A stretch of 64,000 nt of DNA from a virus, in the IMG/VR virus record IMGVR_UViG_3300018059_000546. One strand, given 5' to 3'. Positions 13,877 through 49,196 of the stretch are shown here, in pieces. A program made the translations under genes and the position numbers. Below the pieces are notes generated by a model. The model was not told the origin of the DNA and made no database searches. It saw nothing but the letters and a program-made list of their open reading frames with translations. Numbering within the stretch: position 1 is the stretch's first letter; the number at the start of each line of letters is the position of its first letter.

Positions 13877-14302
13877 TCAATGGAATCCACATTCTGGACA
13901 AGGTTCGTTCGGATCGTATCCTTGATGTTTGCATTGTGGACATTCGAACGCGCCGCTACCATCATCTGGTTCACACAATTCGCAAAACTCATCATTCGGA
14001 TTAGCAGTTTGAGATCCGCAACCAGCACATGGATTGTCTTTATGAGGATCATGTCCACAATCAGGACAAGACCAGTCTTTTGTGGGTATGTTCTTTCGAT
14101 CGCACTGTGGGCAATCCCACGCGTCGCGCTCGATTTCGTGGTTCATCAATTGTTTCTGAGAAAAGAACCTACATTGTTGGTTCGGGCACTCAACGTTGTT
14201 CATGCCTCCGATGTACGCACCTGGATGATTGCATCCGGGACAAACAGCCTCAGAAAGCACCCGCCGAACAATTTCTCGAAACTCTTTCAGGGTGGCTTGC
14301 AT
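13877..14302 (-). CDS. Multi-Zn-ribbon protein with N-terminal putative capsid-targeting peptide
   Basis: MQATLKEFREIVRRVLSE followed by seven CxxC pairs and one CxxxxC. TAGTTA motif upstream. Confidence 0.7.
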   Translation of the reverse strand: MQATLKEFREIVRRVLSEAVCPGCNHPGAYIGGMNNVECPNQQCRFFSQKQLMNHEIERDAWDCPQCDRKNIPTKDWSCPDCGHDPHKDNPCAGCGSQTANPNDEFCELCEPDDGSGAFECPQCKHQGYDPNEPCPECGFH

Positions 14303-14306
14303 TACT

Positions 14307-15551
14307 CTAACTATTCGAAAACAGCTTCAGATAGAGCTGTGCTACATTGTACCAGCTGTTTTCTTCCACGTACTTCAGCTGTTTGTCGACCTGCTTCTTC
14401 TTCATAAGAGGATCGGAGAAAAGCTTATCCAATATCTCTGCAAGGGACTTGGGATCGTCCGCCTTGAGGGTTGGGATGTCCGAGAAGTGATTCACGGACG
14501 TCGTAACGACGGGCACGGCTTTCGACATAGCGGAACGTGCTGCGCCGGAAGCTCCGTACACCTCGTGCTTCGGGTGGGACGTGTACGGAAACAGCACAGC
14601 CTGGTTGGTGCGCATGTAGCTGTCCAGCACCTCGACGGACTGGAACCCTCTGATGATCGAAACGTTGGATTCTAATCCGTGTTTAGTGACGAACGACATG
14701 AGCTCATCGTAGTAGAGCTGATGTTCGGTCGCATTGAAGGGCGATTCGGAGAACAGCCCCGTGAAAAACGCATCCTCGTACCTGCCAGCGAGGATCCGTG
14801 CCACCTCCAGGGACGTCTCCCAACCCTTGTACCGGAAACCAAATCCGAATTGCATGAAGGTTCTGGGTGACTTATAGAGGTTCCAGAGCTTCTTCCTGTC
14901 CAGGCACGGATCGCAGCCGTGCGGAATGACCGAAACAGATCCGCAGATCTTCTTCTCATCATCGAGAACTTTCTTCGCGCCGTCGAGATGAACGACGATC
15001 TCAGGCATCGCAGCTTCACAGATCGTCTTGTCACGATGGTGGAACACGGAATGCATCGTGACGATGACCCTTCGAGATCTCATCTGTGAAAGGAACGATA
15101 GCCAGTGGCGCGCATTGGACCAAAGCCCCCACTCGTGCTGCACCCAAACGATATCCGGATCGTATTCATCTATCCGCTTGACAAGCTCTTTTAGATCTTC
15201 TCCACGCTTCCAACAGATTACAACATCTTCGTCGGCGACTGTTCTATCTCCAACAAGATGAAGAGGTCCGGTCGGAGTGTCGTTACGTTCGATGAACAAC
15301 CTAGCATGACCAACACCGTCGATGACGTGCGGCCACAGTTTCTCGGAGTACGTGGAAATTCCGCACACCATCTTCCAATTTCCGACGAATGCAACCTTCA
15401 TCTCGTTGAGCGGTTTTTGGACACGATCGTGCTTCGAAAGAGAGATGGGATTTTCGGAAGATGATTCGACCACTTTCATTCCTTTCGATTCGAACGGAGA
15501 ATCCGACACAGTTACGATCTTGTCATTTCGTATGCCGACATACTTGACCAT
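14307..15551 (-). CDS. GT-B glycosyltransferase (GT4-like)
   Basis: CGISTYS, PDIVWVQHEWGL, VIVTMHSV, VIPHG, FGFGFRYKGWE, SGAARSAMSKAVPVVTT. Confidence 0.88.
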   Translation of the reverse strand: MVKYVGIRNDKIVTVSDSPFESKGMKVVESSSENPISLSKHDRVQKPLNEMKVAFVGNWKMVCGISTYSEKLWPHVIDGVGHARLFIERNDTPTGPLHLVGDRTVADEDVVICWKRGEDLKELVKRIDEYDPDIVWVQHEWGLWSNARHWLSFLSQMRSRRVIVTMHSVFHHRDKTICEAAMPEIVVHLDGAKKVLDDEKKICGSVSVIPHGCDPCLDRKKLWNLYKSPRTFMQFGFGFRYKGWETSLEVARILAGRYEDAFFTGLFSESPFNATEHQLYYDELMSFVTKHGLESNVSIIRGFQSVEVLDSYMRTNQAVLFPYTSHPKHEVYGASGAARSAMSKAVPVVTTSVNHFSDIPTLKADDPKSLAEILDKLFSDPLMKKKQVDKQLKYVEENSWYNVAQLYLKLFSNS

Positions 15552-16868: not shown

Positions 16869-17129
16869 TCAGCGAGAGGGTGTATTTTGGACTTCTACGA
16901 GAACATCTCGAACGATTTCTCGAACCTCTTTGACCGACATAACCTTGGAAAGAACTTCGAAAGGAACAGAGCGTAGAGCTAGAGCAGCCTTATCGATCAC
17001 GCTCCAAAAAGTATCCAAGTCCTTCTGGTTCTTAATTCGTCCGGAAGTGACACGATCTTCTAGGATACTCTGCAAGGCCTGGCGAATCTGCTCCTGGCCC
17101 ATGTATTCTGAAGAAGCTCCGACTTTCAT
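16869..17129 (-). CDS. Hypothetical protein with C-terminal copy of the shared peptide
   Basis: Ends ...MSVKEVREIVRDVLVEVQ. Confidence 0.6.
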   Translation of the reverse strand: MKVGASSEYMGQEQIRQALQSILEDRVTSGRIKNQKDLDTFWSVIDKAALALRSVPFEVLSKVMSVKEVREIVRDVLVEVQNTPSR

Positions 17130-17459: not shown

Positions 17460-17517
17460 TTTTTTGCCTGCCTTACCGATAAATAGCAAGCTCTCGGGCA
17501 CACTACTTATGGATTCC

Positions 17518-18144
17518 ATGCAGCTCAAAGAATTAAGAAAACTAGTTCGCTCTGTCTTACAAGAAGAGATGGAGATGATTACCGACCACAATCCAGAGGT
17601 TGTTCTATCCTTTTTGAAGGATCGAAACGTTGAGGACAAGATGAGGAACATGGGACTCAGCCATCTCATTGATAATCCTAACCTTTCGGATGAGCTTGAA
17701 AACCACATCAGAGTTGCATGCCTAGTCGGTTGCAAAGGAGAGGCTCAGAACTGGCTCGGATTCGATCTGGGGACGAATGACGAAACTGCCGAACGTCGAT
17801 TTTGCAGTGCTAGCAAATGGCAGAAGCACGACTCCATGGATTCGGATTGGTTCAAAATCAAAGCCTTGAACGTCTGGGGTCAGCCTTTCTACTCGACAGC
17901 CAAAGAATACCAGGCAAGCCAACAGTGCGCCGACGAACATACGATGGACATGTTCTCTAATGTGAACGACACCGAAATCAATCGAACAATGCTAGAACCT
18001 AGCACAACTATCTGGGTTCCTCATGATGATGGAATCAGATGTGTTGAAGGGAACAAGAGAATGCATGCTCTTGCGCTGGGCATGGTTCGAGGTGTCGTAG
18101 GAGACGACGTGACCACCCGCTGGAAGATGTGGTCGAAGATCTAA
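17518..18144 (+). CDS. Protein with N-terminal shared peptide and C-terminal ParB/Srx-like motif
   Basis: MQLKELRKLVRSVLQEE start follows TACTTA (17504-17509). IRCVEGNKRMHALAL resembles the ParB/Srx [DE]GxxR motif. Confidence 0.6.
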   Translation: MQLKELRKLVRSVLQEEMEMITDHNPEVVLSFLKDRNVEDKMRNMGLSHLIDNPNLSDELENHIRVACLVGCKGEAQNWLGFDLGTNDETAERRFCSASKWQKHDSMDSDWFKIKALNVWGQPFYSTAKEYQASQQCADEHTMDMFSNVNDTEINRTMLEPSTTIWVPHDDGIRCVEGNKRMHALALGMVRGVVGDDVTTRWKMWSKI

Positions 18145-18145
18145 C

Positions 18146-18448
18146 TTACTTCGGAACGTTCTGAAGAAGAGTTTGAAGCGTCTTATTCACGTTCGTTAGA
18201 ACTTGCTTGGTCGAAGCATCTTGGGCAGAACCCAGAGCTTTCGTCACGGCAGCTACGACAGCCTGCAGATCAGCGATCACCGGAGTTGCCTGCGGAGGGG
18301 CCGGGGCCGGAGGAGCTCCTGCGGCGGGCGGCGGAGCTGCAAGAGGTGCACCCGGCGCCGCAGGAGCGGCAGTAGGTGCCGGAGGAGGTACAGCTTCTTT
18401 CAAAACAGAACGCACCAACTCACGAAATTCTTGCAGGGAGATCTTCAT
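18146..18448 (-). CDS. Pro/Ala-rich protein with N-terminal shared peptide
   Basis: MKISLQEFRELVRSVLKE, then a PAP-rich linker and a helical tail. TAGTTA upstream. Confidence 0.7.
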   Translation of the reverse strand: MKISLQEFRELVRSVLKEAVPPPAPTAAPAAPGAPLAAPPPAAGAPPAPAPPQATPVIADLQAVVAAVTKALGSAQDASTKQVLTNVNKTLQTLLQNVPK

Positions 18449-18465
18449 CGTAATCGATAACTAGG

Positions 18466-19024: not shown

Positions 19025-19257
19025 GTCGTTCCTTGCAAGCTTCTCTGTGTGATCGCCCAATGGTTACAAGGCATCCACTCGTATCCAATTGTACTTTGTT
19101 CACCATCTTGGAACACAAAAGACCTGTACTCAAACTCGCCTCTTTTGAATTCTGCGACGACAAGACCAGTTTCCTCTAATGGACCATTTATCACAGTGTA
19201 GTGCTCGCCGACGGGAAGAAGATTTTGAATTAGACATTTGCATTTAGAACACTTCAT
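19021..19257 (-). CDS. Hypothetical protein
   Basis: 78 aa, ATGA overlaps at both ends. Confidence 0.55.
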   Translation of the reverse strand: MKCSKCKCLIQNLLPVGEHYTVINGPLEETGLVVAEFKRGEFEYRSFVFQDGEQSTIGYEWMPCNHWAITQRSLQGTT

Positions 19258-20084
19258 ACGACCCTCTTCAAAATGTTGAAGCTCTCTCCAAGACGCTCAT
19301 GTTCTGCATCATGACATTTATCGCATAAAACGAGGCCAGAGATGTTTCTTTCTAGATGGATCTGTTCAATTTTCTGAGCAATCTTTGTCTTCAAAGCGAA
19401 GTCGTCCTGACCGGTGAATCCAAACTCATCTGAAGCTTCGTGAAGGATCGTAGCAAATCTCTCCCCATCATGGTGGACATGGAGATCTCCTGTCGTTTCG
19501 CAACGAGAACATTTGAAATTAGCTGCTTGGAGCTTGGGAAACTTCCAGGATTTGTAGAGAAGTGAATGGGCCAAACCAGCCAGCCGAGAATATCCTCCCT
19601 TCCACTGAGAATGATCAGATCCATAAAGGGTTGGAACTTTCCCACTCTTACGATTTTCTGACATAGACTTAGATCGTCTTTTGACCTCACTGGGATTTGA
19701 AAGAATCGCGATTGATCCACTTTGACCGTACTTGGCAATACGTTCGTCAGCTTCTTTCGTCAAACCCTTATTCCATGCTTCGAGCTCCCCATTCGCAAAA
19801 GCCTTTTTGCGAGATTCACTAAGCTTTTTGTTTCTTTCTTCTGGATTAGCTCCGGCAAAATTATTTTTCACGCGAGAAGCATGCCCATGAATGAACGGGT
19901 TATAGCCCTTTTTTATCCCACAGAATTTCGTTTCAATCTTGCAAGGGCATCCACAAAGTCCGGGACCGTGGATGGCATCCCATAATTCTTTTGCAGATTT
20001 CTTATGATGATGTTGAACATGAGCTCTAAACGAATTATCAAGGTTTCCCTCATACGAACAATCATCGAACGGACACTTAAACAT
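19254..20084 (-). CDS. HNH homing endonuclease
   Basis: N-terminal C2H2 and CGCPC motifs; AWNKGLTK; HSQWKGG; CSRC...LHVHH...GLVLCDKCHDAEH. GGAGG lies 5 nt before ATG 20084. Confidence 0.85.
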   Translation of the reverse strand: MFKCPFDDCSYEGNLDNSFRAHVQHHHKKSAKELWDAIHGPGLCGCPCKIETKFCGIKKGYNPFIHGHASRVKNNFAGANPEERNKKLSESRKKAFANGELEAWNKGLTKEADERIAKYGQSGSIAILSNPSEVKRRSKSMSENRKSGKVPTLYGSDHSQWKGGYSRLAGLAHSLLYKSWKFPKLQAANFKCSRCETTGDLHVHHDGERFATILHEASDEFGFTGQDDFALKTKIAQKIEQIHLERNISGLVLCDKCHDAEHERLGESFNILKRVV

Positions 20085-20702: not shown

Positions 20703-20767
20703 GGTCTTATCCGAAGCTTAAGTATACGATCTCTTGGATTGTAAACGATGAAGTTCTATTCGCATTT

Positions 20768-21190
20768 TCATGCTGGTTCCCACCCACGACCTGGATTCCA
20801 AATGAACTCTCTTTGCTCGGGTCGATTGTTGTGCATGTACCCTCGCAAATTTCCTTCGGAGTCTTCGTACCAGCTATCGTCGTCTTTGTTACTTCCTGGT
20901 ATGTCCAACCATTGCTCAGCAGCTTCGGGAAAACTCTGCGAGACGTGTTCCCAGTTGTCGTAATCTCCTCCAAAATCGGGCGGAAACCTTGGATGTTGAT
21001 CTACAATTGGCGAAGCAAAAGGGCTTTGTACGGCGTCTGCCTAGCGTTTGTTATACAATTTACAATCTGGATTTGGACATTCAATGTCGTGTAAGCCGAT
21101 GTGTGCTTCAGAATCTCCGCATCGAGGGCAGACAGATTCACGGAGCAGGACCCTGATTGCGCTTCGAACTTCTGATATTAGAATTTTCAT
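20768..21190 (-). pseudogene. Unannotated tagged Zn-ribbon gene interrupted by an in-frame TAG at codon 50 (pseudogene or readthrough)
   Basis: Manual translation: MKILISEVRSAIRVLLRESVCPRCGDSEAHIGLHDIECPNPDCKLYNKR*ADAVQSP...WNPGRGWEPA. ATGA-coupled to the upstream gene. The N-terminus is paralogous to 13877..14302. Confidence 0.75.
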
Positions 21191-21678
21191 TTGACGTCCT
21201 CGAATGTTTTATTCAGTTTGTCCCACCAAAATGAGAAGATACCGTAGTTCTTCCCCATGTCGACATGGTGGATCTTGTGCAGATTAATTAGCCTCTTCGT
21301 TCCCAGAATCCAATGGAACCAATGAGCCTTGAGATGGATCCAATCATGAATGAAGCTATGAAGGAGTCCCACACCCCCGATGACAAGCACTAGCCAAATA
21401 GCGGACATCCATCCGATGAGATCGGTGAACAGTGCAAGAAGAAGAGGTGAGCAGAGCAGCGGAAGTCCGATGGCAAGAAACGTCCATGTAGAATTATCCT
21501 TACCCGCGTCGCGATACGTTTCTGATGAGAAATTTGTGGGTGGATAAAGGACGAGATGGTGCATCATGTGCGCTCTATGAAGAACTCCCATCCACGACTG
21601 ATGTAGCGCTCGATGGAGCCAGTATCCGAATGCATCTGTCGTTACGATGGCAGCAACAGTTAGAATTGCTGTAATCAT
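21187..21678 (-). CDS. Fatty-acid hydroxylase/sterol desaturase family membrane protein
   Basis: His boxes YWLHRALH, HRAHMMHH, HDWIH and HKIHH, plus NYGI...WDKL and transmembrane segments. Confidence 0.85.
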   Translation of the reverse strand: MITAILTVAAIVTTDAFGYWLHRALHQSWMGVLHRAHMMHHLVLYPPTNFSSETYRDAGKDNSTWTFLAIGLPLLCSPLLLALFTDLIGWMSAIWLVLVIGGVGLLHSFIHDWIHLKAHWFHWILGTKRLINLHKIHHVDMGKNYGIFSFWWDKLNKTFEDVK

Positions 21679-22709
21679 TTTTTACCTCCAAGGTCTTGCC
21701 AAACTTGAAATGCTCGTTTGCGAAACCATTTTTCTGCTCGTTCAAGCTCAGCTTTACGATCCGGTTCTTTCGTTCTTTTTCCCTTGCGATCCCTACCCCG
21801 TAAAAGCATATTTGCGTGCATGCCCCAAGGAAATCTAAATTCTGGATTTGTTTCTTGTGCTGGTGTTGTTGCTTGCGGTTTCAAATAGCTTACAAGAACT
21901 TCAACAGTTGGAAATTTCTGTAAGAATGCTTCGGGGCGATCACCATATTTCGAATACAATTTCTCGAATTGCTGGATAAAAGTTCCTACAATTTCCTCGT
22001 AGTCGAACTCACTGCCACCTCTCGTAAAAAAATGTTTCACATGAGGACCAGTAGGAACTTTTCGGGCCGTAATAAGATGACCCACTTCATGAAACCAAGT
22101 CTCATGAGCATCATCTAACAATCGAGGCATCGCACGCACAAATCGTTGCAAACTCCACAATTTTTCTTCAGGAGAATATGGAATGAGTATCACATACTTG
22201 CGTTGGGATTCTGGCATATTAGGGATATTTTTGAGACGTTCTTTACTAGTTGTCTGCCCATAGAGTCTTCTTCCTATGAAGCTATCTGTCGGATTAGAAC
22301 TTTTGTACATCCCGTATGTTTCGTCTTCAGGAACTTCATTGTTCCTGAAGACGATGTCGACATTCATAAATTCAGGAATTCCAAGAAATTTTCCTGAGAT
22401 AATCCAGTCTTCGTCGTATTTTCCCTTCCGAATGGGAATGCTCTTTGGGTCTTGCTGCAATTTAGCAGCGAGGTCCTGCATCGAATCGAATGAATTTTGA
22501 GCAAATCGAGCGTGATCTGATATCACTTCTTGAAGAGTATGTTTGACAATTCGACGAATATCTTCCATCGTCATCGTTTCATCCTCTTTGTGTTTTTCAT
22601 CCTTACCAGTTTCATCTCCTGGAACAGGTTCGACACCACCACTCGAAATCTTGTTCAGTTCCGGATTGTCGACATGGAAATAGGACTCCCTAAATTTCTT
22701 GTGGGACAT
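21675..22709 (-). CDS. Protein with shared peptide and HExxH metallopeptidase-like motif
   Basis: TMEDIRRIVKHTLQE at residues ~47-61; WFHEVGHL...EFDYEE. Confidence 0.6.
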   Translation of the reverse strand: MSHKKFRESYFHVDNPELNKISSGGVEPVPGDETGKDEKHKEDETMTMEDIRRIVKHTLQEVISDHARFAQNSFDSMQDLAAKLQQDPKSIPIRKGKYDEDWIISGKFLGIPEFMNVDIVFRNNEVPEDETYGMYKSSNPTDSFIGRRLYGQTTSKERLKNIPNMPESQRKYVILIPYSPEEKLWSLQRFVRAMPRLLDDAHETWFHEVGHLITARKVPTGPHVKHFFTRGGSEFDYEEIVGTFIQQFEKLYSKYGDRPEAFLQKFPTVEVLVSYLKPQATTPAQETNPEFRFPWGMHANMLLRGRDRKGKRTKEPDRKAELERAEKWFRKRAFQVWQDLGGKK

Positions 22710-22780
22710 TACAAAATTCTCTTTAAGGGTGCAGCAGGAGCAATTTCAACGACTTGCATGTATTGTTAAGTACACATAAA

Positions 22781-24053: not shown

Positions 24054-24392
24054 TTATTCCTTTTGAGCACGTTTGACCATCGCAACAACCAAAGAAACCA
24101 AGTCCGATCGAAAGTCATGATCCTTCGTGAGGAGCACTCCGACGATCTGTTCTGCCAACTTGCGAGCATCCGCACCTTCGGCCAGAGCGACGGCTTTTCG
24201 AACCTCGGGATTGCGAGCTGCGTGCACAGCAATTTCCCTAAGACCATCCAACATCGCATCCCCGATGAGCATCGATAGTTCGAGCCCGCCGTGTGAAGTT
24301 CTCTCTGTTAAAGTACGACGAAGCTCGCCTCTAATGACAGATCTAATCTCTGTTTCGGTGAGTTTCAGATCGTTCTTTTCGTTTTTTACCAT
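24054..24392 (-). CDS. Small protein with N-terminal shared peptide
   Basis: LKLTETEIRSVIRGEL...LTE. Confidence 0.65.
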   Translation of the reverse strand: MVKNEKNDLKLTETEIRSVIRGELRRTLTERTSHGGLELSMLIGDAMLDGLREIAVHAARNPEVRKAVALAEGADARKLAEQIVGVLLTKDHDFRSDLVSLVVAMVKRAQKE

Positions 24393-37797: not shown

Positions 37798-37834
37798 AGT
37801 CTCATATATCAACCTAAGTAGTTGATATCATTCG

Positions 37835-39745
37835 TCAAATGATGTTCATGTCCATCACGCTCACGCTTCCATAAAAATCGCTTCGGACCATCTTCTTGCC
37901 GTAGCGAGTCATGACGCCCTTACGCGGAGTGAAGTCCTCAGGAGCGAAGAGGGTCGGAGTCACGATGAGCGGGATGTACGGAGCGTACACATACCCGGTC
38001 TCAAGGTAGTGAGATCCCTTGTAGCCAATCAGAATCTTGGCGCGGGGGAAGTACGGATCCTTGTAGACGGTGAACCGGTTCGTCAGAGTACCGATTGGAT
38101 CGGTTCCGAGCGAGAAGGGCACACCCACCTGGCCATCCGAGTCGATCGACAGCTTGGGCCGGTAAAGGACCGTGCTTTCGAACATCGTCGAGACGTCAGG
38201 TCCGCAGACCACGAAGTTCGCGGCTCCACGAAGCGTCTTCTGGTGAATCTCGTTAGCAACGTCGATAATCGTTTCGACGAGGACTTCGTACCACTCACGG
38301 ACTGTACCAGTGAAGTTCGGACCAGGAGAGAGCGAAGAAGCGAGGTTGGCAGTCGCGCCGGTGACCTTGTTGACGAACTTACCAGGAGAACGGCTCCAGT
38401 AGTAGTTCGCACCAGAGGCCTGCGACAGGAGATCCAAAAGGATTTCACGGTCGATTTCAAGCGAGATCTGCTGAGACAGGATCTGAGTAAGCTCAACTTC
38501 TGCATCGAGCGAGAGGTAAGCGTTCATATCCTGAGCGAGTTCGGGAGACCAGCGAGCGCGGAGCTTACGGGTCGTAGTACCGATGGAGATCTGCTCGATC
38601 TTCATATCGATCTCAGGGATCGCCGGCGAAGGAGTCGCACCGAAATCGGACTCGAACGAGGGTACCGTGAGAGCTGAGCCGGTTCCACCGTCAACGCTCA
38701 GAGCATCGCTGATAACCATCGACATCGTGTTGTTTGCAGCAGCTGCGCCAACACCGAGGGGAGGAGTGACACCGCCGTTGGTCACTCGAAGAACGCACTG
38801 GACGTGAGTTCCGTTGAGTGGCGAGGGCGTGAAGGTTGTGCCGTCCCAGTTGCCGCGCTTGTTAAGGCGACGGAGGTTGAGAACGCCGCCACCAGCCTGA
38901 TATTGCTCACCCCAGGCGACCACACCCCCGTTACCGAACCCGAAGGCTGTAACTGCGAGCTGTTCTGGTGAGAGCATATCTGCGCCGAGCATCGTACCCG
39001 TGATTTCAGCAGCACGAACGTGCATGAACGTGAAGTCGAGGGTGTTAGCCGTGAGATCAGTCTCGAGCTTGCCGTCGAAGCCACAGAGGCGAGCGACAGT
39101 GCCCGTGAACTGCGTACCAGCGGTAACGATCGAACCCGAAGACCAAGCTTCGTTGGCTCCGATGAATGCACCGATATCACCGGGAGCAACGAACACAGTC
39201 GCCGCTTGACGATGAACCCGGCTGTAACCGGCACCAACGAGGTCGTACATACCACCGACAGCCAACGAACCGGACTGAACGCCGCGGCCTGCAGGGCTGT
39301 TGAAGATGGACTGACCCCGTGAATACGTCTCATTGGTAGAGCCGTTCAGAAGGGTGAGACCCGCGTCACCACCGACATTGCTGCCGTAGGTGTAGTCAAG
39401 GTAGAACACAAGACCTTGAGGAAGGTTCAGGGGCTGGATGGAGACGAGCTCGTTAGCAACGAGCGCTCCGAAGACTCTACGAACGATCGGGAACGCGATG
39501 GTCGTGAAACCAGCGAGCTGACCAGAGTTCGAAAGACCGGCTGCACCACCGGAGATACCCACGCTTTCACGCAGGAGCTGCATGCACTGGTTTTCCAGAA
39601 GCTGCGCCATTGACTCCCGACGGAGACCATCGAGGCCACGAAGAAGGCCCGTCTTGGACCACTTCTCGACGAGAGCAGTACGCTCCGTCTTCATGTTGCG
39701 TTGCTGCATATTTTCAGTCAACGCCTTGAGATCAAAATTCTTCAT
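37835..39745 (-). CDS. gp23: Major capsid protein (T4 gp23-like)
   Basis: EKWSKTGLL...LLENQ...AFPIVRRVF...VSIQPL..PQGLVFYLDY...TRKLRARWSPELAQD...EIDREI...GYVYAPYIPL...PRKGVMTRYG. Confidence 0.96.
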   Translation of the reverse strand: MKNFDLKALTENMQQRNMKTERTALVEKWSKTGLLRGLDGLRRESMAQLLENQCMQLLRESVGISGGAAGLSNSGQLAGFTTIAFPIVRRVFGALVANELVSIQPLNLPQGLVFYLDYTYGSNVGGDAGLTLLNGSTNETYSRGQSIFNSPAGRGVQSGSLAVGGMYDLVGAGYSRVHRQAATVFVAPGDIGAFIGANEAWSSGSIVTAGTQFTGTVARLCGFDGKLETDLTANTLDFTFMHVRAAEITGTMLGADMLSPEQLAVTAFGFGNGGVVAWGEQYQAGGGVLNLRRLNKRGNWDGTTFTPSPLNGTHVQCVLRVTNGGVTPPLGVGAAAANNTMSMVISDALSVDGGTGSALTVPSFESDFGATPSPAIPEIDMKIEQISIGTTTRKLRARWSPELAQDMNAYLSLDAEVELTQILSQQISLEIDREILLDLLSQASGANYYWSRSPGKFVNKVTGATANLASSLSPGPNFTGTVREWYEVLVETIIDVANEIHQKTLRGAANFVVCGPDVSTMFESTVLYRPKLSIDSDGQVGVPFSLGTDPIGTLTNRFTVYKDPYFPRAKILIGYKGSHYLETGYVYAPYIPLIVTPTLFAPEDFTPRKGVMTRYGKKMVRSDFYGSVSVMDMNII

Positions 39746-39784: not shown

Positions 39785-41542
39785 TCACTTAGTAGAGAGG
39801 CCGGCGAGCTCGAGCCAACGAGCAGTCTCCATACCCTCTGAGATGATGGGACGTTCTGAGGACGTGGTCGTTCTAGACGACGATCCCGCAGCTTTCGGCC
39901 GACGAGACACGTTTTCTCTGATCATTCCCTGATCACCATCTTCGAAAGCCTTCGTGAGACTTCCGTAGATTAGCTTCACCTCTCGCAAACTCATCGCTTC
40001 GTCAAGCCGATCAATAACCGTTACTTTTTGGTTTTTGGTCAGCCCGTCGCGTTGGAGGAGCTTATTTGCATGGATCAGCTTACTGTTGAGCAGATTAACT
40101 TCTGCCAACTGCTTGCGATAACCGTCAGCTTCCCGACGACTTTCAGCGAGCTCGGACTGGACAGCTTTATTCCTAGCAGCTGCTTCGTCCATCTTTTTCA
40201 GAGAAGGTCCGAGACGCCTGTTGGCGAGCTCTTTAATCTTCTCAAAGCGTTTCGCGGCGCGCTCAACGACTTTGCGGGCGCTCGCTTCATTCTTAGTTCC
40301 GACATGCTTAAGATACCATGCTTTCGACTCTTTCAAGTCACTAGAAGCAATAGTAAGCATACGATCGATGCTCTCGGGCTTGAGATGATTATCAGCTTGC
40401 TCACGACCTTTGTCGTCGCGCATGCGGCGGTTCTGCTGCTCTTCGACTTCGTCGCCTTCGCAGGCCTCGTCCTCTTCACCTTCGCCGAGACGTTCTAGAT
40501 CGCTATCAAGCCAGGGATCGCCCTCAGACGAGCCACCACCGAAGTTATCGAGAACTTCAGCTCCAACTCCACCCTTGGATCCGGGAGTCTTAGGAAGCTT
40601 ACCCTTCTTCGATTCCTTCACAGAGGCGATAGCTTTACGAAGCATGGGAATAGAAACTTCGACGACGGTATCGTCATGAAGAATTTCGTTCTCATCGTCA
40701 TCTGATCCTTCGCTGTCATCCGATCCTTCGCTATAGACTGATTCGCCCATACCAGGAACGGTCGGAGGGCCCGGAGGAGGCTCGCCGCCGTCCGGAGGAG
40801 CACCCATATCGTCGGTGGGGAGTCCATCTTCATCACCGAGTGGATCCTCATCTGAGATGATATCGATGTTGAGGTTTTCAAGCTCGACGTCATCGGGGAG
40901 GCCGGTAATACGAAGGGTAACATCCTTCTCTTCAGAAACGAGTTCTTTCATCTTCATCTTCGACTCCCTAAAGGAATTCAGTAATCCGTAACAGGTCTCA
41001 AGTTTCTCTTCGAGCTTGGGCTTGTTCTCGACACTGTTCTCCTGTAGATATGAATAGATATCCTCAATTTTGCGAATTGTGGTATTCAATTCGTCAGAGT
41101 TCATTGTCCGAGCGCCAGTAATGACTTCGTTTATGTTATCGTATGTTTTATAGACTTCTGCAACGATTCTATCCATCAGTGCAGGTCCAGCAAGCTTAGA
41201 GAGATGGAAAAGAGGTTCGTAAGATTCGTCCTTGACTTCGAACGACTCTTTCGTCGTTTCGTCACTTTCAGAATCGTCCCCTGCCTCTCCTCCACCAGAA
41301 CCTGACGTCTGTCCTGTTCCTGACGTTGCGCCAGTCATTTCTGGATGAGACGAACCAAGTGACCCTCCGGCGAATCCATTCTCATCAAGAGAATCTTCAT
41401 CGGTGTTTCCGGAAAGGTTTCTCTCAATGAGGTCTTTCAACTTGGGTGTGAGACTGTCGATGATAGTGTTGCGAGCATTCGCTTCCGCGACTTCACGCAA
41501 CTGCTTCATGTCATTGAGAGCTTCTTCGTAGACGGTCTTCAT
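39785..41542 (-). CDS. Prohead core/scaffold protein
   Basis: Acidic low-complexity protein directly upstream of the capsid gene. Conserved C-terminus EVNLLNSKLIHANKLL...REVKLIY...RWLELAGL. Confidence 0.75.
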   Translation of the reverse strand: MKTVYEEALNDMKQLREVAEANARNTIIDSLTPKLKDLIERNLSGNTDEDSLDENGFAGGSLGSSHPEMTGATSGTGQTSGSGGGEAGDDSESDETTKESFEVKDESYEPLFHLSKLAGPALMDRIVAEVYKTYDNINEVITGARTMNSDELNTTIRKIEDIYSYLQENSVENKPKLEEKLETCYGLLNSFRESKMKMKELVSEEKDVTLRITGLPDDVELENLNIDIISDEDPLGDEDGLPTDDMGAPPDGGEPPPGPPTVPGMGESVYSEGSDDSEGSDDDENEILHDDTVVEVSIPMLRKAIASVKESKKGKLPKTPGSKGGVGAEVLDNFGGGSSEGDPWLDSDLERLGEGEEDEACEGDEVEEQQNRRMRDDKGREQADNHLKPESIDRMLTIASSDLKESKAWYLKHVGTKNEASARKVVERAAKRFEKIKELANRRLGPSLKKMDEAAARNKAVQSELAESRREADGYRKQLAEVNLLNSKLIHANKLLQRDGLTKNQKVTVIDRLDEAMSLREVKLIYGSLTKAFEDGDQGMIRENVSRRPKAAGSSSRTTTSSERPIISEGMETARWLELAGLSTK

Positions 41543-42136: not shown

Positions 42137-42403
42137 TTACTCAGAAATTTTGCGAATAAGCTTTTGTTTGCGCTCGTCGAGAGACTTCAACCGAAGGCGA
42201 AGTTTGGTTTCTTCAACCTTGAGTGCCTTGAGCATGTCGATGTGTGACGCGAGGGTGTCAGCGTAATCGCCGCCATCCTTAAGCTCCTTCGTCTCCTTAG
42301 CTTTATCTTCGACAGATTTCAGTTTCTTTTCTTCGTGAAGCTTCGCCATCTCTTCGAGGACGATCTTGCGGAGCATATCAGGAGTCAACGTCTTGCGATT
42401 CAT
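42137..42403 (-). CDS. Small coiled-coil protein with N-terminal shared peptide
   Basis: MNRKTLTPDMLRKIVLEE. TAATTA upstream. Confidence 0.7.
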   Translation of the reverse strand: MNRKTLTPDMLRKIVLEEMAKLHEEKKLKSVEDKAKETKELKDGGDYADTLASHIDMLKALKVEETKLRLRLKSLDERKQKLIRKISE

Positions 42404-42462: not shown

Positions 42463-42939
42463 TCATCGGCGTGAACGAGAGGCTGCTTTTACAGCTTCGT
42501 ATGGGTCAAACCCATCGTCGTAGTCGTTATCTTGACCAACTTCCATAGGACCTGTAGATTGGGTACGGGTGATGTGAGAGTATGGATCTGTTGCCCTAGA
42601 AGGAAGCGGTGTGTCTCCGAATGTCATCTTATCCCACGTAGAAGCCATTTCTCCGAGAACTTCTCCCTGTTTTTCAGCCTGGATCGAATCTTGGTACATT
42701 TTGTCGGCGGCTCGACGTCGAGAATCGCTAAACAACGACTTCAAAGGAGTTGGAATTCCCTCAGGGAGATCGTCTTCTTGCTGTCTGGACGGAAGTGCAA
42801 CTCTTGTAGACTCTCTGACAGCTTCTTTTTGTGGAAGATGGGCACGACCCGGGTTAGTCATGGTGGTGCTTCCGTCTAACAGGATTTCAATCAGACATTC
42901 TTTGATCAATGCCTTGAAATCTTCTCTTTTGATTTTCAT
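42463..42939 (-). CDS. Head-region protein with N-terminal shared peptide
   Basis: MKIKREDFKALIKECLIEIL. Confidence 0.7.
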   Translation of the reverse strand: MKIKREDFKALIKECLIEILLDGSTTMTNPGRAHLPQKEAVRESTRVALPSRQQEDDLPEGIPTPLKSLFSDSRRRAADKMYQDSIQAEKQGEVLGEMASTWDKMTFGDTPLPSRATDPYSHITRTQSTGPMEVGQDNDYDDGFDPYEAVKAASRSRR

Positions 42940-43412
42940 AGTACTTCTGTTCCTTTGTCAGCAATCGTGATGCCGTCCAAGTGGTCTACTTCATGCATGA
43001 TGATTTGGGCCTTGAGCCCGTCAGCAACTGCAATCTTATGATCTCCGGTCAACGTAGTATACGAATACCATAGAGATTTGGCGCGGTGAACTCTGAATCT
43101 ACGTCCTGGAAGAGATAAACAAGCCTCGATAACCTGTTCGAATTTCTTGCTAGTTTTTTTGATCCTGGGATTTAACATGACTAATGGTTTCGACAGAGCC
43201 GTACCAGCATGTTCATCAACAATTATGATCCTACGTAGAGAGCCGATCTGTGGGGCGGCGATGCCAACCCCTCCAGATTCAGCCAACTCTCCGAGCATTA
43301 CCTGAATGATCGCTTGAAGTTCTTCGTCTTCGAAATCTAGGACTTTGACTTCCTTCGAGCGCTCATTCAGAATAGCGTTCGGATACACAATTATCATCCG
43401 ATCCCTTGCCAA
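42936..43412 (-). CDS. def: Peptide deformylase
   Basis: Motif 1 GVGIAAPQIG, motif 2 EACLSLP, motif 3 HEVDHLDG. Confidence 0.93.
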   Translation of the reverse strand: MARDRMIIVYPNAILNERSKEVKVLDFEDEELQAIIQVMLGELAESGGVGIAAPQIGSLRRIIIVDEHAGTALSKPLVMLNPRIKKTSKKFEQVIEACLSLPGRRFRVHRAKSLWYSYTTLTGDHKIAVADGLKAQIIMHEVDHLDGITIADKGTEVL

Positions 43413-43800: not shown

Positions 43801-44409
43801 TTACTTGTCTCCTCGTCTAGAGGTGATATCGTTCAATATACGATCAATTCGATCAGACTTTCGAAGAACCTTACGCAGGTCTGAATCTTCGATCTTGCGT
43901 CCTTCGGTGTAGAGGAAAGCTTGCGCCGTGGAAGGTTCTTGCACGAGATCAAAGGTGATCAAAACAAAATCGTCTCCGACCACGTTGTAATCTCCTTCCT
44001 TCTTAGTAGAACCAACTCCTCTTGAAGAGATTCCAAGCTTGACGCCTCCTTCAACCAGCTCTTGCGCAATCTTGCCGCTCGGAGTGTTTAGCAGTTCAAG
44101 CACTCCAAAAACGTCGTCTCCTTCCATGCGAACTTCTCGCATGATATGAGAAACATTCTTCAGATTGATGATTGAACTATCGGGATGATCAAGCTCTCCG
44201 GTCGCTCGACTTTCAGCGATGAATTTCTGGTAGTTGCGAATCTCTCGTCCGAGAATTTCCCGAGGATAAACTCGTCCATTCTGGTTCAGAGAATCGGCAC
44301 GTTGAATGATGCCGCTGAGACGGATCTTCGCTCCTGCTTCCTTCGCTTCTTTAATCTGCTGGGGATCGTAATCCAGGGCAGTCCATTCTGTCAGTAGGTT
44401 ACGCATCAC
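43801..44409 (-). CDS. gp21: Prohead core protease (T4 gp21-like)
   Basis: NQNGRVYPREIL, GELDHP, VSH, TPSG, GISSRGVGS, FDLVQEPST. Confidence 0.93.
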   Translation of the reverse strand: MMRNLLTEWTALDYDPQQIKEAKEAGAKIRLSGIIQRADSLNQNGRVYPREILGREIRNYQKFIAESRATGELDHPDSSIINLKNVSHIMREVRMEGDDVFGVLELLNTPSGKIAQELVEGGVKLGISSRGVGSTKKEGDYNVVGDDFVLITFDLVQEPSTAQAFLYTEGRKIEDSDLRKVLRKSDRIDRILNDITSRRGDK

Positions 44410-45348: not shown

Positions 45349-48300
45349 TCATGCTTTTTCTACGATGTCAGTATCATCAAAATCATCCAAGTCGATCTCT
45401 TCAGCATTTTCGCTAAGTACTGTAGCGTTTGTAACCTTCTTAGATTCGAGCTTTGCCTTCATTCTCTCGAGAGCATGACGAAGATCCTGCGACAAACCAG
45501 GATCGTCACCATTCAAGAATGGATCGATATGAAGAGCGTATTCTTTAGTTTCAGAGACAGCTCCCAATTTAGAGAATGATTTCATGAATGACGAATCGGT
45601 CGGATCCTTCATTTCAGGAGTGTCATTTCCAGTCATACGAGACAGGTCCGGCATCCCATGCGTAGTAGAACCATCGTGTCGTCGGCGCTTTTTGTTATAT
45701 AGAAGCCTATCCAGGTGGGTCTGCACCTTGACAGGGGAGTCGTCATCCTTCATAGACAATCGAATTGGTGCATCCGTAGTATCACTCGGGTCGTCGTGCG
45801 CAAGAACAAGGTCGTTACCCCGATATTCACCCGCCGTGACAACTTCTGATCCTGCGAGCGATGGGGACCCGCTAGGGGCCCCTCCCATATCGGGAGTTCC
45901 ACCGGACAGATCTTCGCCACCAAGATCCATGCCTTCGTCCGTTTCTCCACCACCGCCAAGAGAAGCAGCTTCGCGGGCGGCAGCACCCTGAGCATCATCA
46001 AGAATCTCCTTTTCGACCTGGACAATCTCTTCTGGAGTCATTCCCATGACATTCAAACGGAGCCAATCCCTTGAAAGGAGACCTTCAGGAGACGTTCCCA
46101 TGATTTCGAACTTAGAACGAATGAGCTCAAGTTTCTGCTGCTGAGCAACAGATGAGGGATTCGACAAGCGCAGGCTAAAGTTTACTAGATCCTGATCAGA
46201 GTATCCTGCTACTGCAAGATGGACCATGGCCAACTTGTTCAATTCTGAGATGATTGTCCTTTGAATCATAGAAATCGTGCGACTAAAGCGAACATCGATC
46301 TGCGCCAGAGAAGCTTTGCTTCCTAGAGCTTCTTCGAACCCAAGGTACGCCTTTGGAACCTGCAATGCGGCGAACAACTTCTTCTGAATGTATTCGACAT
46401 CGTTAACTGTTCCAACGTTTTCTCCACCCTTAAGAGTGTCGATTCTAGTTCCGGACTCCGTTCCTCTAACTGGAAGGAAGTAGTCTTCCTCAATTGAGAG
46501 GGGTGAGTATCTTTGGTCTGTTCGTCCTGAAGCTTGATCGGACACAAGAGCTCCACGAAGGGTGGTCTTCACCTGCTCCATATAGTGACCAACCTCGTCG
46601 GGTGGGATAGCTCCAATATCGATGTAGAAGACTCTTCGTTCAGGAGAACGAGTAATCCGGTACGTAAGCATTGCATCTTCGATGAGAATCAACTGACGCC
46701 AAATGCGTCTCGCACCTTCGACGACAGATGATCCGTAAGGAAGGAACATGTCGTTACCGAGAAGGCGCATGTGCGTGACTTCCCAGTTATCCAATTCTTT
46801 GTTCTTGTCTACCCATCGAAATTTGATAGCGAACGGATCATTTGGATCGTAATTCTCGACCCTTTCGATATGATTAACAGGAATCGGAACAGCATTCACA
46901 ACCCCTAATTCTGGATCGACGTCATTGAGAAGAAATGCATCACCGTACTTGCAGAGGTTTCTAACCCACGGTCGGAGGTTGAATTCAATGTTCAAGTTGT
47001 TGTAGAAGAGATCTTCGAGGACACTTCTAATCTTACTGTTCGTAGAATAGATGTGAAGAACTCTACCCTTCTCATCACTGGAACATGTTTCATCTGCGTA
47101 CAGGTTCAAGCATGCATTTAATTCAGGAGTGTTGTGAGAAATTACAGTTGACGTCGCGAAATTCTTGTAACCGTCAACTGTTAGATCGTATAGATCGATT
47201 TCTCCATAGTATTCGACTGAAACGACCTTCATGTTCTCGTAGGTAGCGGTAAACTCTTTGTAGTTCTTGTATCCTCTGAGCTGGATGCGTTTTTCGACCT
47301 TACACCTCGAATACCCCATCTTCGCAGCGAGTTGTTTGAGGTTCATTCCCTTTTCGTAAGCTGCACAAACTGTTTCGAATGTGATGCTCTTATCGAATTT
47401 CGGATTGCTTTCTGCCTGGTTATCCCACCCACCATTTCTCCAACCGGGAGAATACGCTTTGGCGAAAGTAGAAAAATTCTTGAACCCTTTTTCTTCCAAT
47501 CTATTTCCAATTACACTTAGATGAGCATCAAGAGCTTCCTGTAGTTTGTTGATGTTGAAACCAACACGCTCGCATGTTTCGAGAATTCTTCCAAAAGTGA
47601 TGTCATGACGCTTGACAGGATTGTGGTTTTTCATGAACTCAGAATGGTTCTTTTTGAACTTATCGATCCATTCTTGGTTTTCAGGGGCCCACTTTTTTCC
47701 ATTGACGATACGAGCATGATAGGCACGATGCTCTGCATCATCCATGATGAGAAGATTACTAGGAGTGTTATCAGATTTCTTGAAGTTGATGTGATGAACA
47801 ACTTCTGTTTCTGCAACTTCCCGGCCGGCGACAAACTCAGCTACGAGATTGTGTTCAGATTGCCATCCGTTGTAACCTCTGTCAGACATCGTGTACACCC
47901 AACGATATCCAGTTGTTTCTGCTTCTTCTTTCCTAGCATACAAGTCTCTTCGATAGAACGGCATCATGGCCATCCCAGTCTTCAGTTCTCCGAGCTTACA
48001 ATAGGTTCCGTCCCGTAACATCAAACGATGTTCGAAAGATCCGATGATTTCCTGTCCATCGTCGAACGTAACTTTCCACGATTTATCTGTCGTAGTTTTT
48101 CGAGCCTGTTTTCCAAGTGTTGGAACGATATGGCCTTTCTCATGGTTATAAGCATAGACGATGAACGTTTTATCAGGATTTTTCTCACACTCCTCAGCAA
48201 GCTTTCCGATTTCTACGAACCCATCTTCGTATTCTGGAGATGCTATAAGTGTATGATATGATAGGCACATTTCCATTTCGCAATAGTCCTGATACCTCGA

Positions 48301-48507
48301 CAATCTCTCTTGAATAGAGAACGTATTGTTCGTGATCTGGTTGTACGTCGGAGTGACAGAACGCTGGAAGATCCGAGCAGCAGAGGACTTACCCCTACCC
48401 GGAACAGCGATCGAGGTGTCCACCGATACGATCTTCTTTCTGACCACAGGTCCGCTCCGAAACAATCTTGTGAGTCTCTGGAAGACATTTTCCTTATCTT
48501 GGGCCAT
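45349..48507 (-). CDS. gp20: Portal protein (T4 gp20-like) containing an intein
   Basis: WVRNLCKYGD, LPYGSSV.E.ARRIWRQL.L.EDAML.YRI.RSPERRVFYIDIG, EEDYFLPVRG, LFAALQVPKAYLG. Intein at residues 81-459. Confidence 0.93.
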   Translation of the reverse strand: MAQDKENVFQRLTRLFRSGPVVRKKIVSVDTSIAVPGRGKSSAARIFQRSVTPTYNQITNNTFSIQERLSRYQDYCEMEMCLSYHTLIASPEYEDGFVEIGKLAEECEKNPDKTFIVYAYNHEKGHIVPTLGKQARKTTTDKSWKVTFDDGQEIIGSFEHRLMLRDGTYCKLGELKTGMAMMPFYRRDLYARKEEAETTGYRWVYTMSDRGYNGWQSEHNLVAEFVAGREVAETEVVHHINFKKSDNTPSNLLIMDDAEHRAYHARIVNGKKWAPENQEWIDKFKKNHSEFMKNHNPVKRHDITFGRILETCERVGFNINKLQEALDAHLSVIGNRLEEKGFKNFSTFAKAYSPGWRNGGWDNQAESNPKFDKSITFETVCAAYEKGMNLKQLAAKMGYSRCKVEKRIQLRGYKNYKEFTATYENMKVVSVEYYGEIDLYDLTVDGYKNFATSTVISHNTPELNACLNLYADETCSSDEKGRVLHIYSTNSKIRSVLEDLFYNNLNIEFNLRPWVRNLCKYGDAFLLNDVDPELGVVNAVPIPVNHIERVENYDPNDPFAIKFRWVDKNKELDNWEVTHMRLLGNDMFLPYGSSVVEGARRIWRQLILIEDAMLTYRITRSPERRVFYIDIGAIPPDEVGHYMEQVKTTLRGALVSDQASGRTDQRYSPLSIEEDYFLPVRGTESGTRIDTLKGGENVGTVNDVEYIQKKLFAALQVPKAYLGFEEALGSKASLAQIDVRFSRTISMIQRTIISELNKLAMVHLAVAGYSDQDLVNFSLRLSNPSSVAQQQKLELIRSKFEIMGTSPEGLLSRDWLRLNVMGMTPEEIVQVEKEILDDAQGAAAREAASLGGGGETDEGMDLGGEDLSGGTPDMGGAPSGSPSLAGSEVVTAGEYRGNDLVLAHDDPSDTTDAPIRLSMKDDDSPVKVQTHLDRLLYNKKRRRHDGSTTHGMPDLSRMTGNDTPEMKDPTDSSFMKSFSKLGAVSETKEYALHIDPFLNGDDPGLSQDLRHALERMKAKLESKKVTNATVLSENAEEIDLDDFDDTDIVEKA
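47131..48267 (-). mobile_element. Intein with HNH endonuclease in the portal gene (379 aa)
   Basis: N-junction EMEM|CLSYHTLI; block B IGSFEHRLML; HNH VVHHINFKKSDNTPSNL; C-junction LYDLTVDGYKNFATSTVISHN|TPE. Confidence 0.9.
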
Positions 48508-48605
48508 TTTTCTTCTTACAAACTTTCTCTACAGATTAAAATAAGTAAAACGCGACCCCATCAACAAGAAAGGATCGCGTTATCTGGGTGAGAAAGCTCT
48601 TTAGT

Positions 48606-49196
48606 TTATGATTTCGAAGAACGAAGCTTGTTTGCCCACATTTCAGTGCTCTCTGTGGTCACCATCATTTTTGGTTCACCCTTTGCTTTAGCACACATAG
48701 GGCACAAACTAACTTTTTTATCATAATTGCAACCGCAAACTGGACAGTGTGTAGGATCCGAAAGAACTCTCTCAGTTCCAGTGTTCTTTGCAGCCTGCTC
48801 AGCAGTTTCCTGCACCGTGTGGTCGATCAATGCAGAATCATGACCACCCGAAGATGGCTTCGACGAAGGAGGACCACGACCATCTAGGTCCGCCCTACGA
48901 TTCGCTACGACCTCTTCTGGAGTGCTATCAAGATAGCTTAGAGGAGACTGCCACATGTCGTTGAAAAGCCCTTCCAGTGCATTTAGATGCATGGAAATGG
49001 CAGCGGAAGCTTTTCTGGAAGGCATCTGAGCTTTTTGCTTCAAACCTTCGAGTGCTTTCAGACTGGCAGAAGCGGCTTTTCCAAGCGCAACACCCATTTC
49101 GTGCATGCTCTTTGGAGATTCGACACCTTCACTGGCCTCGGCTATCTGCTTTCTGATCAAGTGTTTTAAAGAATCGATCGTCTTCTGATCCGTCAT
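48606..49196 (-). CDS. Hypothetical protein with shared peptide and C-terminal Zn ribbon
   Basis: IDSLKHLIRKQIAEA; CPVCG...CPMC. Confidence 0.6.
   Translation of the reverse strand: MTDQKTIDSLKHLIRKQIAEASEGVESPKSMHEMGVALGKAASASLKALEGLKQKAQMPSRKASAAISMHLNALEGLFNDMWQSPLSYLDSTPEEVVANRRADLDGRGPPSSKPSSGGHDSALIDHTVQETAEQAAKNTGTERVLSDPTHCPVCGCNYDKKVSLCPMCAKAKGEPKMMVTTESTEMWANKLRSSKS

Follow-up and report, generated by a model that had tools for sequence, protein, structure and literature searches.

An amphipathic leader on unrelated proteins of uncultured T4-like jumbo phages as a candidate capsid-targeting propeptide

Why do proteins that otherwise seem unrelated begin with a similar short peptide in an uncultured T4-like phage? 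The genome is ~350 kb long, with 121 kb present in the fragment, and the window (the whole stretch of DNA analysed, 64,000 nt) lies within it; no tRNA genes were found in the window. An earlier note on this DNA had described about 13 near-identical peptides on unrelated proteins as a capsid-targeting tag. All 13 quoted peptides are present at their positions, including the one at 17518, which starts a plus-strand gene (17518-18144) and not a minus-strand one. The profile scan of the genome and its relatives that was also proposed there was run, yielding 7 genome matches and an N-terminal excess in the relatives (12 of 20 matches). One amphipathic motif of 16-17 residues is formed by seven peptides, six at protein starts and one C-terminal. 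A profile of the clear copies gives exactly 7 matches (21-27 bits) in the six-frame translation of the 121-kb genome sequence, with a runner-up at 6.4 bits and a best score of 6.9 bits in a reversed-sequence database. Arg7, Leu14 and Glu16 are invariant in all seven peptides, and pairwise identity among the leaders is 18-65%, so that “near-identical” was too strong a term. Five copies (14302, 17518, 18448, 32741 and 16940) are recovered when left out of the profile (E 2e-5 to 2e-3), and the two diverged ones are supported by paralogy (21190) and orthology (22574).

The N-terminal copies are those at 14302, 17518 (plus strand), 18448, 21190, 22574 and 32741. The first (14249-14302, minus strand; residues 1-18, ending L-S-E; 26.9 bits, and 18.4 bits with E 2.4e-4 when left out) opens gene 13877-14302, which codes for a 141-aa protein with several zinc ribbons (the Pfam matches are weak). 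The leader at 17518-17565 (plus; residues 1-16, ending L-Q-E; 24.8 bits, left out 15.4 bits, E 2e-3) precedes a 208-aa protein without Pfam or PHROG match. Gene 18146-18448 (minus; 100 aa) encodes the leader (18395-18448; residues 1-18, ending L-K-E; 27.3 bits, left out 21.8 bits, E 1.9e-5), then a linker rich in Pro and Ala and last a helical tail, and gene 32394-32741 (minus; 115 aa, without known family) starts with a leader of 19 residues (32685-32741, ending L-K-E; 24.6 bits, left out 17.4 bits, E 5e-4). A diverged leader (21137-21190, minus; residues 1-18, ending L-R-E|S) begins gene 21041-21190, whose 49-aa product is a single zinc ribbon paralogous to that of 13877-14302 (payload E 2e-7); it scores 21.0 bits inside the seed set and 3.5 bits when left out, being too diverged to be recovered. 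The C-terminal copy (16893-16940, minus; 25.7 bits, left out 17.0 bits) lies in gene 16869-17129, starts with Met and ends in L-V-E, with 7 residues and the stop codon behind it. In the relative G002 the homologue of this protein stops exactly where the copy begins, and the copy is probably a remnant, now fused to this gene, of the start of a cargo gene that was lost.

The second diverged leader (22527-22574, minus; residues 1-16, ending L-Q-E) belongs to gene 21675-22574, encoding a 299-aa protein with an HExxH motif; an AGAGGA ribosome-binding site precedes its ATG at 22574, and the frame remains open further upstream to a long-form ATG at 22709. A word-index homologue search with this payload found only the protein itself, and a full HMMER search found three orthologues of about 40% identity. 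All three start with the leader at residue 1, keep [I/L]-x-E and have an invariant HExxH, and one of them (P0003) scores 14.1 bits over residues 1-17 with the five-copy profile. The AlphaFold2 model of the family is poor (pLDDT 60.5), detachment of the leader from the fold not being discernible in it; Foldseek found no PDB match with E <0.4, and the ESM Atlas gave no usable lead. The peptidase-like label of the earlier note is therefore based only on the HExxH motif, which is indeed present.

A probable eighth copy is the shorter leader (24713-24757, minus) that opens gene 24386-24757, the next gene after that of the sheath; with a widened profile this leader reaches 10.6 bits (E 0.09; reversed-database maximum 6.9). 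In the relative G010, two ORFs that carry the leader lie downstream of the sheath gene. The peptide at 24392 (4.0 bits) and the internal one at 36983 are at noise level, and those at 42403, 42939 and 49196, discussed below, are analogous helices, so that the proposed 13 shared copies come down to seven, or probably eight. In the 121-kb fragment the leader is found on six payload types (a zinc-ribbon pair, the HExxH protein, the Pro/Ala-rich protein and three without known family), unrelated to each other except for the paralogous pair; the carriers are thus unrelated as claimed for these six, not for 13. In Pfam and PHROG scans, no payload was assigned to a family apart from the weak zinc-ribbon matches, and the ParB/Srx-like and kinase-like labels found no counterpart in either scan. 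Payload homologues were sought in relatives, and none was found except for the HExxH protein. Whole-protein isoelectric points, leader included, are 4.8, 5.4, 5.8, 7.7, 9.2 and 9.7 (two of six clearly basic). The leader genes are surrounded by tail genes (tail tube, sheath) and not by the head module. Their region is also rich in homing endonucleases.

In the six N-terminal copies, the leader is 16-19 residues long and sits at the very N-terminus, and right after Glu16 of L-x-E the column similarity drops to background, so the shared part is bounded to 16 columns. Residues identical among the carriers are mostly encoded by different codons, and the upstream and flanking DNA is unrelated; therefore, selection acts on the peptide, and the conservation sits in the protein and not in the DNA. 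A DNA-level repeat or regulatory cassette was ruled out as the origin of the leader by these codon differences. A broader form of this idea, in which the shared start is a non-functional by-product of a gene head duplicated by recombination or of an RNA or DNA element (a translation initiation region or a mobile cassette), would agree with the abundance of homing endonucleases and with the copy that resembles a fused remnant, but it is already largely refuted by the codons and the flanking DNA, and is highly improbable given that the motif persists in orthologues of about 40% identity and throughout a clade with no more than 55-66% identity between capsid proteins.

The distribution of the leader was followed in about 1.4 Mb of relatives, where 12 of 20 unique profile matches of at least 6 bits are N-terminal, compared with 5.7% expected (P about 1e-10); the matches are on at least nine unrelated payloads and on a head-module family (family C, see below). 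Some leader genes of the relatives directly follow the capsid gene and some the sheath gene. C-terminal copies, as in 16940, are also present in G003 and G009, and one C-terminal copy has no Glu, so cleavage cannot be universal. A blind scan of 2.9 million viral contigs with an ATG-anchored degenerate leader pattern (about 38 bits, less than one chance match expected) identified eight stretches, seven of them distinct, each starting an ORF of 46-166 aa. An unanchored, codon-restricted scan of viral contigs added nothing, its 13 stretches (about 7 expected) being mostly chance-level, out-of-frame or internal. According to CheckV, the six leader contigs checked are 5-38% complete, with genome sizes of about 330-350 kb; the clade capsid gene (65% identity) and an S77 protease are present on one of the six, and all of them are fragments of the same ~340-kb phage clade, across which other small proteins are marked by the same leader. 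A tblastn search of 50,697 cultured-phage records with the leader gave no match, and the leader is restricted to a single T4-like jumbo phage clade.

Expression signals were also compared. The TA-N-TTA motif said to precede many of the 13 genes does so in 4 or 5 of them. In the form TA[G/C]TTA it is located 5-11 nt before the ATG of 14302 (14308-14313, minus; TAGTTA, 5 nt), 17518 (17504-17509, plus; TACTTA, 8 nt), 18448 (18458-18463, minus; TAGTTA, 9 nt) and 36983 (36995-37000, minus), and 57 nt before the long-form ATG at 22709 (22767-22772, minus). Genome-wide, its 21 occurrences are close to the 22.9 expected from dinucleotide-preserving shuffles, and the motif is significant only by its position before gene starts, 12 of the 21 lying on the same strand within 60 nt upstream of one (2.9% expected, P 7e-14). 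In the HExxH orthologues, the motif is found 4-5 nt before the ATG, as TA[C/G/T]TTA(A) in two and as TATTTAA in the third, and this late-promoter-like TA[C/G/T]TTA(A) also precedes several leader genes of relatives. As judged from sequence only, TA[G/C]TTA is common to the sheath, tube and portal genes and to three leader genes.

A T4-type head module, composed of protease, portal, scaffold-like, capsid and terminase genes, offers candidates for the machinery acting on the leader. The prohead protease of the T4 gp21 family (43801-44409, minus; Pfam Peptidase_S77, PF03420, 77.4 bits with a cut-off of 27; phrog_207, 2.7e-53) is presumed to remove it. The major capsid protein (gene 37835-39745, minus) contains, as the earlier note pointed out, L-L-R-E|S, at residues 57-61 (39563-39577), a predicted, not measured, maturation site that is kept as [V/L]-L-[K/R]-E|[S/A] in 68 of 68 relatives and lies about 7 residues from where the N-terminus of mature T4 gp23* aligns; the leader end, [V/L]-L-x-E|S/A, is the same motif. 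An acidic, scaffold-like protein (39785-41542, minus), encoded directly upstream of the capsid gene, kept in about 60 relatives and without any family match, is the presumed docking partner on account of its position, composition and conservation. Nearby, head-module family A (42137-42403, minus; 88 aa) has 50 matching stretches in relatives and a conserved N-terminal amphipathic helix ending I-x-E-E, and family B (42463-42939, minus; 158 aa) has a conserved N-terminal helix with L-x-E twice. Profiles of these N-termini do not retrieve the strong leaders significantly (4.3 bits at best), so 42403 and 42939 are not counted as copies and known core-like proteins are linked to the leader by analogy; the family A profile matches 24757 marginally (E 0.09). 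Family C (48606-49196, minus; 196 aa), encoded between the terminase and portal genes and also with a conserved N-terminus, is a partial exception, its orthologues in relatives scoring 5-9 bits at their N-termini with the leader profile, which in this genome matches none of 42403, 42939 and 49196.

Taken together, the leader is probably a T4-type propeptide for capsid targeting, new in its sequence, from which packaging, cleavage and injection of the carriers are inferred. It would form a short amphipathic helix with hydrophobic residues in heptad-like 3-4-3-4 spacing, through which a late protein, just synthesised, may attach to the scaffolding core while the prohead assembles. Closure of the shell would be followed by cleavage behind the invariant Glu of the terminal [V/I/L]-L-x-E by the gp21-family protease; the leader would be released, and the mature cargo would stay in the head and be ejected with the DNA, where any anti-defence role is likewise conjectural. 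Every computable prediction of this reading, which was that of the earlier note, held, even if the copy number and several payload labels did not.

The neighbourhood of the leader genes, which is that of tail tube and sheath (some leader genes of relatives come right behind the sheath gene), the C-terminal copies, including the one without Glu, and the mixed isoelectric points would also suit a docking helix for another partner (a tail or baseplate assembly factor, a chaperone, a membrane surface or a host hub protein) that the head protease does not remove. This proposal, considered unlikely, leaves unexplained why similarity ends at the invariant L-x-E, the motif of the capsid maturation site, and why the leader is strictly anchored at residue 1; moreover, a head-module family of the relatives has the same motif, and some of their leader genes directly follow the capsid gene. 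Cleavage without targeting, by which the leader would be a pro-sequence that, for instance, preserves solubility or prevents activity of the payload until the head matures, or is just a substrate tag, fits the L-x-E end and the S77 protease equally well, but 13-14 conserved residues upstream of a three-residue site are far more than a cleavage site needs. In addition, the prohead protease works inside closed proheads (PMC5694885), so the substrate must enter first, and a role restricted to cleavage appears quite improbable.

If the leader is a capsid-targeting propeptide, the targeting principle is known from T4 and the leader sequence is new. A capsid-targeting sequence on T4 internal proteins was reportedly described by Mullaney and Black in 1996. 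Its presence on IPI, IPII, IPIII and Alt has been reviewed (PMC3012670, PMC9026906, PMC5694885, PMC8442874); T4 targeting sequences are N-terminal propeptides of 10-20 residues, and gp21 cuts after Glu (PMC5694885, PMC9026906). As in T4, a short N-terminal leader (16-19 aa, within the T4 range) is present on otherwise unrelated, fast-evolving proteins and ends in a motif for the prohead protease (P3 Leu/Ile, P1 Glu), and the phage codes for a scaffold, a capsid protein resembling gp23 and a protease of the gp21 family; the C-terminal propeptide that T4 Alt also has is a partial precedent for the C-terminal copies. In contrast to T4, the leader is longer and its motif differs, with Arg invariant and V/I-L-x-E at the end (the M-K...Q-E-F resemblance to T4 MKTYQEFIAE (PMC8442874) is by eye only, as peptides of this length do not allow a significant similarity to be demonstrated). 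The 121 kb of the ~350-kb genome code for 7-8 carriers, compared with about four in T4; with whole-protein pI values of 4.8-9.7, they are not uniformly basic as the IPI/II/III-like proteins are, and their payloads match no sequence family. Phage and host are uncultured, the system being known from its sequence alone. The giant phages phiKZ, 201phi2-1 and SPN3US have long propeptides on head and ejection proteins (PMC5694885, PMC7411985, PMC10052503). They too are jumbo phages with a gp21-related protease cutting after Glu and propeptides inferred to target the prohead, and the giant-phage paralogues gp53 and gp54 have an identical 15-residue N-terminus in common. Nevertheless, the propeptides of phiKZ and SPN3US are mostly >100 residues and end in A/S/G-x-E, compared with 16-19 residues and Leu at P3 here; those of the phiKZ type are not one short portable leader common to unrelated proteins, and these phages lack a recognisable gp22-like scaffold, whereas the clade described here has a conserved scaffold-like gene beside the capsid gene. 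Capsid-internal or ejected cargo is also found as MuF-fused toxins. Other head-carried cargo includes the P1 Dar proteins (PMC9024508) and the P22 ejection proteins (PMC8402733). In all three systems phage proteins in the head are delivered with the DNA, often against defence, but they are incorporated through specific protein-protein hierarchies or fusion to structural domains, without a short cleavable leader ending in a protease site.

T4 counters host defences first with proteins that travel in its head and are injected along with the DNA. IPI* blocks the GmrSD restriction system (PMC3012670), and infection of E. coli strain ECOR17 needs IPIII (PMC9391042). The leader system would give a testable second example of the T4 packaging principle. 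To our knowledge, the targeting signal is essentially unknown outside T-even phages, which leaves no way to predict such cargo; with a leader defined by its sequence, candidate injected proteins, here including the zinc-ribbon and HExxH proteins, could be listed directly for a large clade of environmental jumbo phages. It is possible, although this is put forward tentatively, that one portable 17-residue leader defines the whole set of proteins loaded into the capsid and injected throughout this clade of T4-like, uncultured phages of ~340 kb. Metagenomes would then suffice to read out what such phages inject, probably an anti-defence repertoire, and the leader could serve as a second, orthogonal protein-packaging tag beside that of T4.

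The leader, a 16-19-residue amphipathic N-terminal peptide ending in L-x-E, is found on unrelated small proteins of the window. An earlier note counted about 13 copies; all the peptides quoted are present in the sequence, and seven copies on six payload types are supported, with one more probable, whereas three are only analogous and two are unsupported. A profile built from the seven clearest copies (N-terminal at 14302, 17518, 18448, 21190, 22574 and 32741; C-terminal at 16940) matched only those seven in the six-frame translation of the whole 121,042-bp record (21-27 bits; next best, 6.4 bits). Because self-matches are circular, the search was rerun with each copy omitted in turn, and 14302, 17518 (which begins a plus-strand gene), 18448, 32741 and 16940 were recovered directly behind the seeds in rank (E 2e-5 to 2e-3). 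Chance is excluded as the origin of the core copies. The 21190 and 22574 copies are diverged, and their support comes from homology instead of leave-one-out recovery: the 21190 payload, whose zinc ribbon begins immediately after the leader, is paralogous to that of 14302 (E 2e-7), and the 22574 copy aligns column for column with three orthologues (full HMMER search), one of which reaches 14.1 bits over residues 1-17 against a five-copy profile. The peptide at 24757 is a probable eighth copy: once relatives are added to the profile it scores 10.6 bits (E 0.09), where a reversed database gives 6.9 at most. The 24392 peptide stays at noise level even with this widened profile, as does the internal peptide at 36983 in the profile search. 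Three small head-module families present in most relatives, A, B and C, account for the peptides at 42403, 42939 and 49196, respectively, which form their conserved N-termini; these peptides are amphipathic helices in the style of the leader and end in I/L-x-E. Neither the family A nor the family B profile significantly retrieved the strong leaders, and family C orthologues in relatives score 5-9 bits with the leader profile. Elsewhere in the record, at window coordinates ~-5739 and ~-44115, two more ORFs start with leader-like peptides, which do not rise above noise (7.1 bits at most); a TACTTA motif precedes one of the two.

Arg7, Leu14 and Glu16 are invariant in the leader, hydrophobic residues at columns 3, 6, 9/10 and 13/14 form a heptad-like stripe, and similarity is on average positive across columns 1-16 and at background straight after Glu16. 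The motif begins 0-3 residues past Met in the six N-terminal copies, hence the leader length of 16-19 residues. These peptides had been called near-identical; the motif is indeed common to them, but their pairwise identity is 18-65%. Where leader residues are identical their codons mostly differ, and the 30 nt that precede each copy are unrelated to one another, which rules out a DNA or RNA element as the shared unit; selection therefore acts on the peptide. Beside these data, an inherited gene head without function is a very improbable account of the leader.

Related contigs of 104-187 kb are 29-52% complete (CheckV-type estimate), and a 350,418-bp contig encodes one of the record's proteins, so the phage is assigned to a clade of ~340-350-kb jumbo phages. 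Its relatives in IMG/VR comprise about 600 contigs, the best 80 with 55-66% capsid-protein identity. The minus strand carries most of the genes. A T4-type head module comprises a large terminase (49715-51325), a portal (45349-48507, minus strand), a gp21-family protease (43801-44409; Peptidase_S77, 77 bits), a conserved acidic scaffold-like protein (39785-41542) and a gp23-like capsid protein (37835-39745). The 1052-aa portal protein carries an HNH-endonuclease-like insert (~residues 179-434) ahead of its portal domain (591-843); for this insert, an intein and a fused homing endonuclease are both conceivable. A peptide deformylase gene (42936-43412, minus strand; phrog_2890, 3.9e-34) lies within this module, with the protease gene on one side and those of the small core-like proteins on the other. 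Homing-endonuclease-like genes (33368-34147 and 49217-49693, minus strand), identified by HNH and homing-endonuclease PHROGs with a weak, below cut-off NUMOD3 match, are interspersed among the structural genes, which fits a recombination-prone region. At window coordinate ~-44807 the record also has a 79-aa open frame whose similarity to the capsid protein is confined to the last 50 residues of the latter (E 7e-12); it may be a vertex-protein paralogue fragment or a split gene. The tail genes, at 20-31 kb, include a tube gene and two tandem sheath paralogues of ~1,000 aa each (24761-27841 and 28115-31150, minus strand), to which the sheath homologue of one relative shows 58% and 35% identity, respectively.

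A TA-N-TTA motif had been noted before many tagged genes. TA[G/C]TTA occurs 21 times against 22.9 expected, so an overall depletion is not borne out, and 12 of the 21 fall in the 60 nt ahead of a gene start on their own strand (2.9% expected; P 7e-14), among them the starts of three leader genes and of the sheath, tube and portal genes. In addition to the occurrences ahead of leader genes, TA[C/G]TTA(A) is found on the minus strand at 3924-3929, 8833-8838, 20719-20724, 27863-27868, 31154-31159, 48542-48547, 51722-51727 and 59690-59695, where the start codon of a structural gene (for sheath, tube, portal or others) follows 1-34 nt later. TACTTAA or TATTTAA also stands 4-5 nt before the ATG in all three orthologues of the HExxH protein (21675-22574, minus strand) and in several relatives' leader genes. 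This motif is probably the late promoter of the clade, and its short spacing to the ATG points to mRNAs that may be leaderless or nearly so.

Apart from the HExxH protein, no payload has a homologue in 1.4 Mb of relatives. The three orthologues of this protein (~40% identity; a 243-kb phage contig carries one of them) all begin exactly at the leader and retain [I/L]-x-E at its end; the true start in the window is therefore the Met at 22574, and not the ATG further upstream at 22709. Of 20 unique profile matches of at least 6 bits among the relatives, 12 are N-terminal (5.7% expected; P about 1e-10). They fall on nine or more payloads with no relation to one another, and two of these directly follow the capsid gene. 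An ATG-anchored degenerate pattern (~38 bits; chance expectation roughly below one match) found eight stretches, seven of them distinct, in 2.9 million viral contigs, each beginning a 46-166-aa ORF, and positions left unconstrained concur (Lys2 in six of seven; Ile, Leu or Val at residue 3). The six contigs examined represent 5-38% of ~330-350-kb genomes (CheckV), the largest encodes the clade capsid protein (65% identity) and an S77 protease, and the contigs scanned hold more leaders, often on adjacent genes. On the related contig G010, two leaders lie downstream of a sheath gene, the position of 24757 and 24392 in the window. No match to the leader was found in cultured-phage records. The evidence from other genomes thus makes the leader a clade-wide, clade-restricted N-terminal module. 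Small leader-bearing ORFs occur in tandem in relatives (G007, 19076-19330; G009, 36006-39070; G010, 7429-8340), and Gly/Pro-rich linkers, GPSGPG for example, frequently come after their leaders.

The C-terminal copies are exceptions to this N-terminal arrangement. The homologue of gene 16869-17129 (minus strand) in the relative G002 (about 42888-43130) stops exactly where the C-terminal copy starts; this copy begins with Met, and the simplest reading is that the add-on would be the start of a lost cargo gene, fused as a remnant. By eye, the N-termini of both proteins are leader-like, that of G002 ending in I-L-Q-E. Relatives have two further C-terminal copies, one without the Glu; in G009 a C-terminal copy lies beside an N-terminal one on the opposite strand. 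A C-terminal propeptide is also present in T4 Alt (PMC9026906).

Cleavage after Glu is common to T4 gp21 and its relatives in giant phages, and P3 is Leu/Ile in T4 (PMC5694885, PMC9026906). In T4, Asp at P1 stops processing while leaving targeting intact. The LLRE|S reported near residue 60 of the capsid protein is there, at residues 57-61; across 68 relatives the site reads [V/L]-L-[K/R]-E with Ser or Ala after it and lies just past a conserved LLENQ block, and alignment with the mature T4 gp23* chain places the T4 maturation point ~7 residues away or less. The leader ends in V/I/L-L-x-E, the four-residue pattern of this predicted maturation site, and the residues after its Glu, often Gly/Pro-rich in relatives and Pro/Ala-rich after one leader in the window, fit an exposed predicted cut site. 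A cleaved pro-sequence with no targeting role would share these features, and is considered improbable. T4 targeting sequences are N-terminal propeptides of 10-20 residues (PMC5694885, PMC9026906), such as MKTYQEFIAE (PMC8442874), to which no homology of the leader is demonstrable. Several points counsel caution over a capsid-targeting role: the leader genes are located among tail genes, the whole-protein pI of their products is mixed, and the single structure model obtained, of poor quality, gave no fold match. A docking helix for a partner other than the prohead core is an unlikely, though less remote, explanation. That diverse internal proteins share a conserved targeting leader is textbook knowledge for T-even phages (PMC3012670, PMC9026906), and no report of such a signal in distant T4-like jumbo phages was found among the papers searched, which date from 2015 onwards and use the term. 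While the principle is already known from T4, the leader of this clade differs in sequence, and we favour, with some confidence, the view that it is a propeptide for capsid targeting of the T4 type whose sequence form is new.
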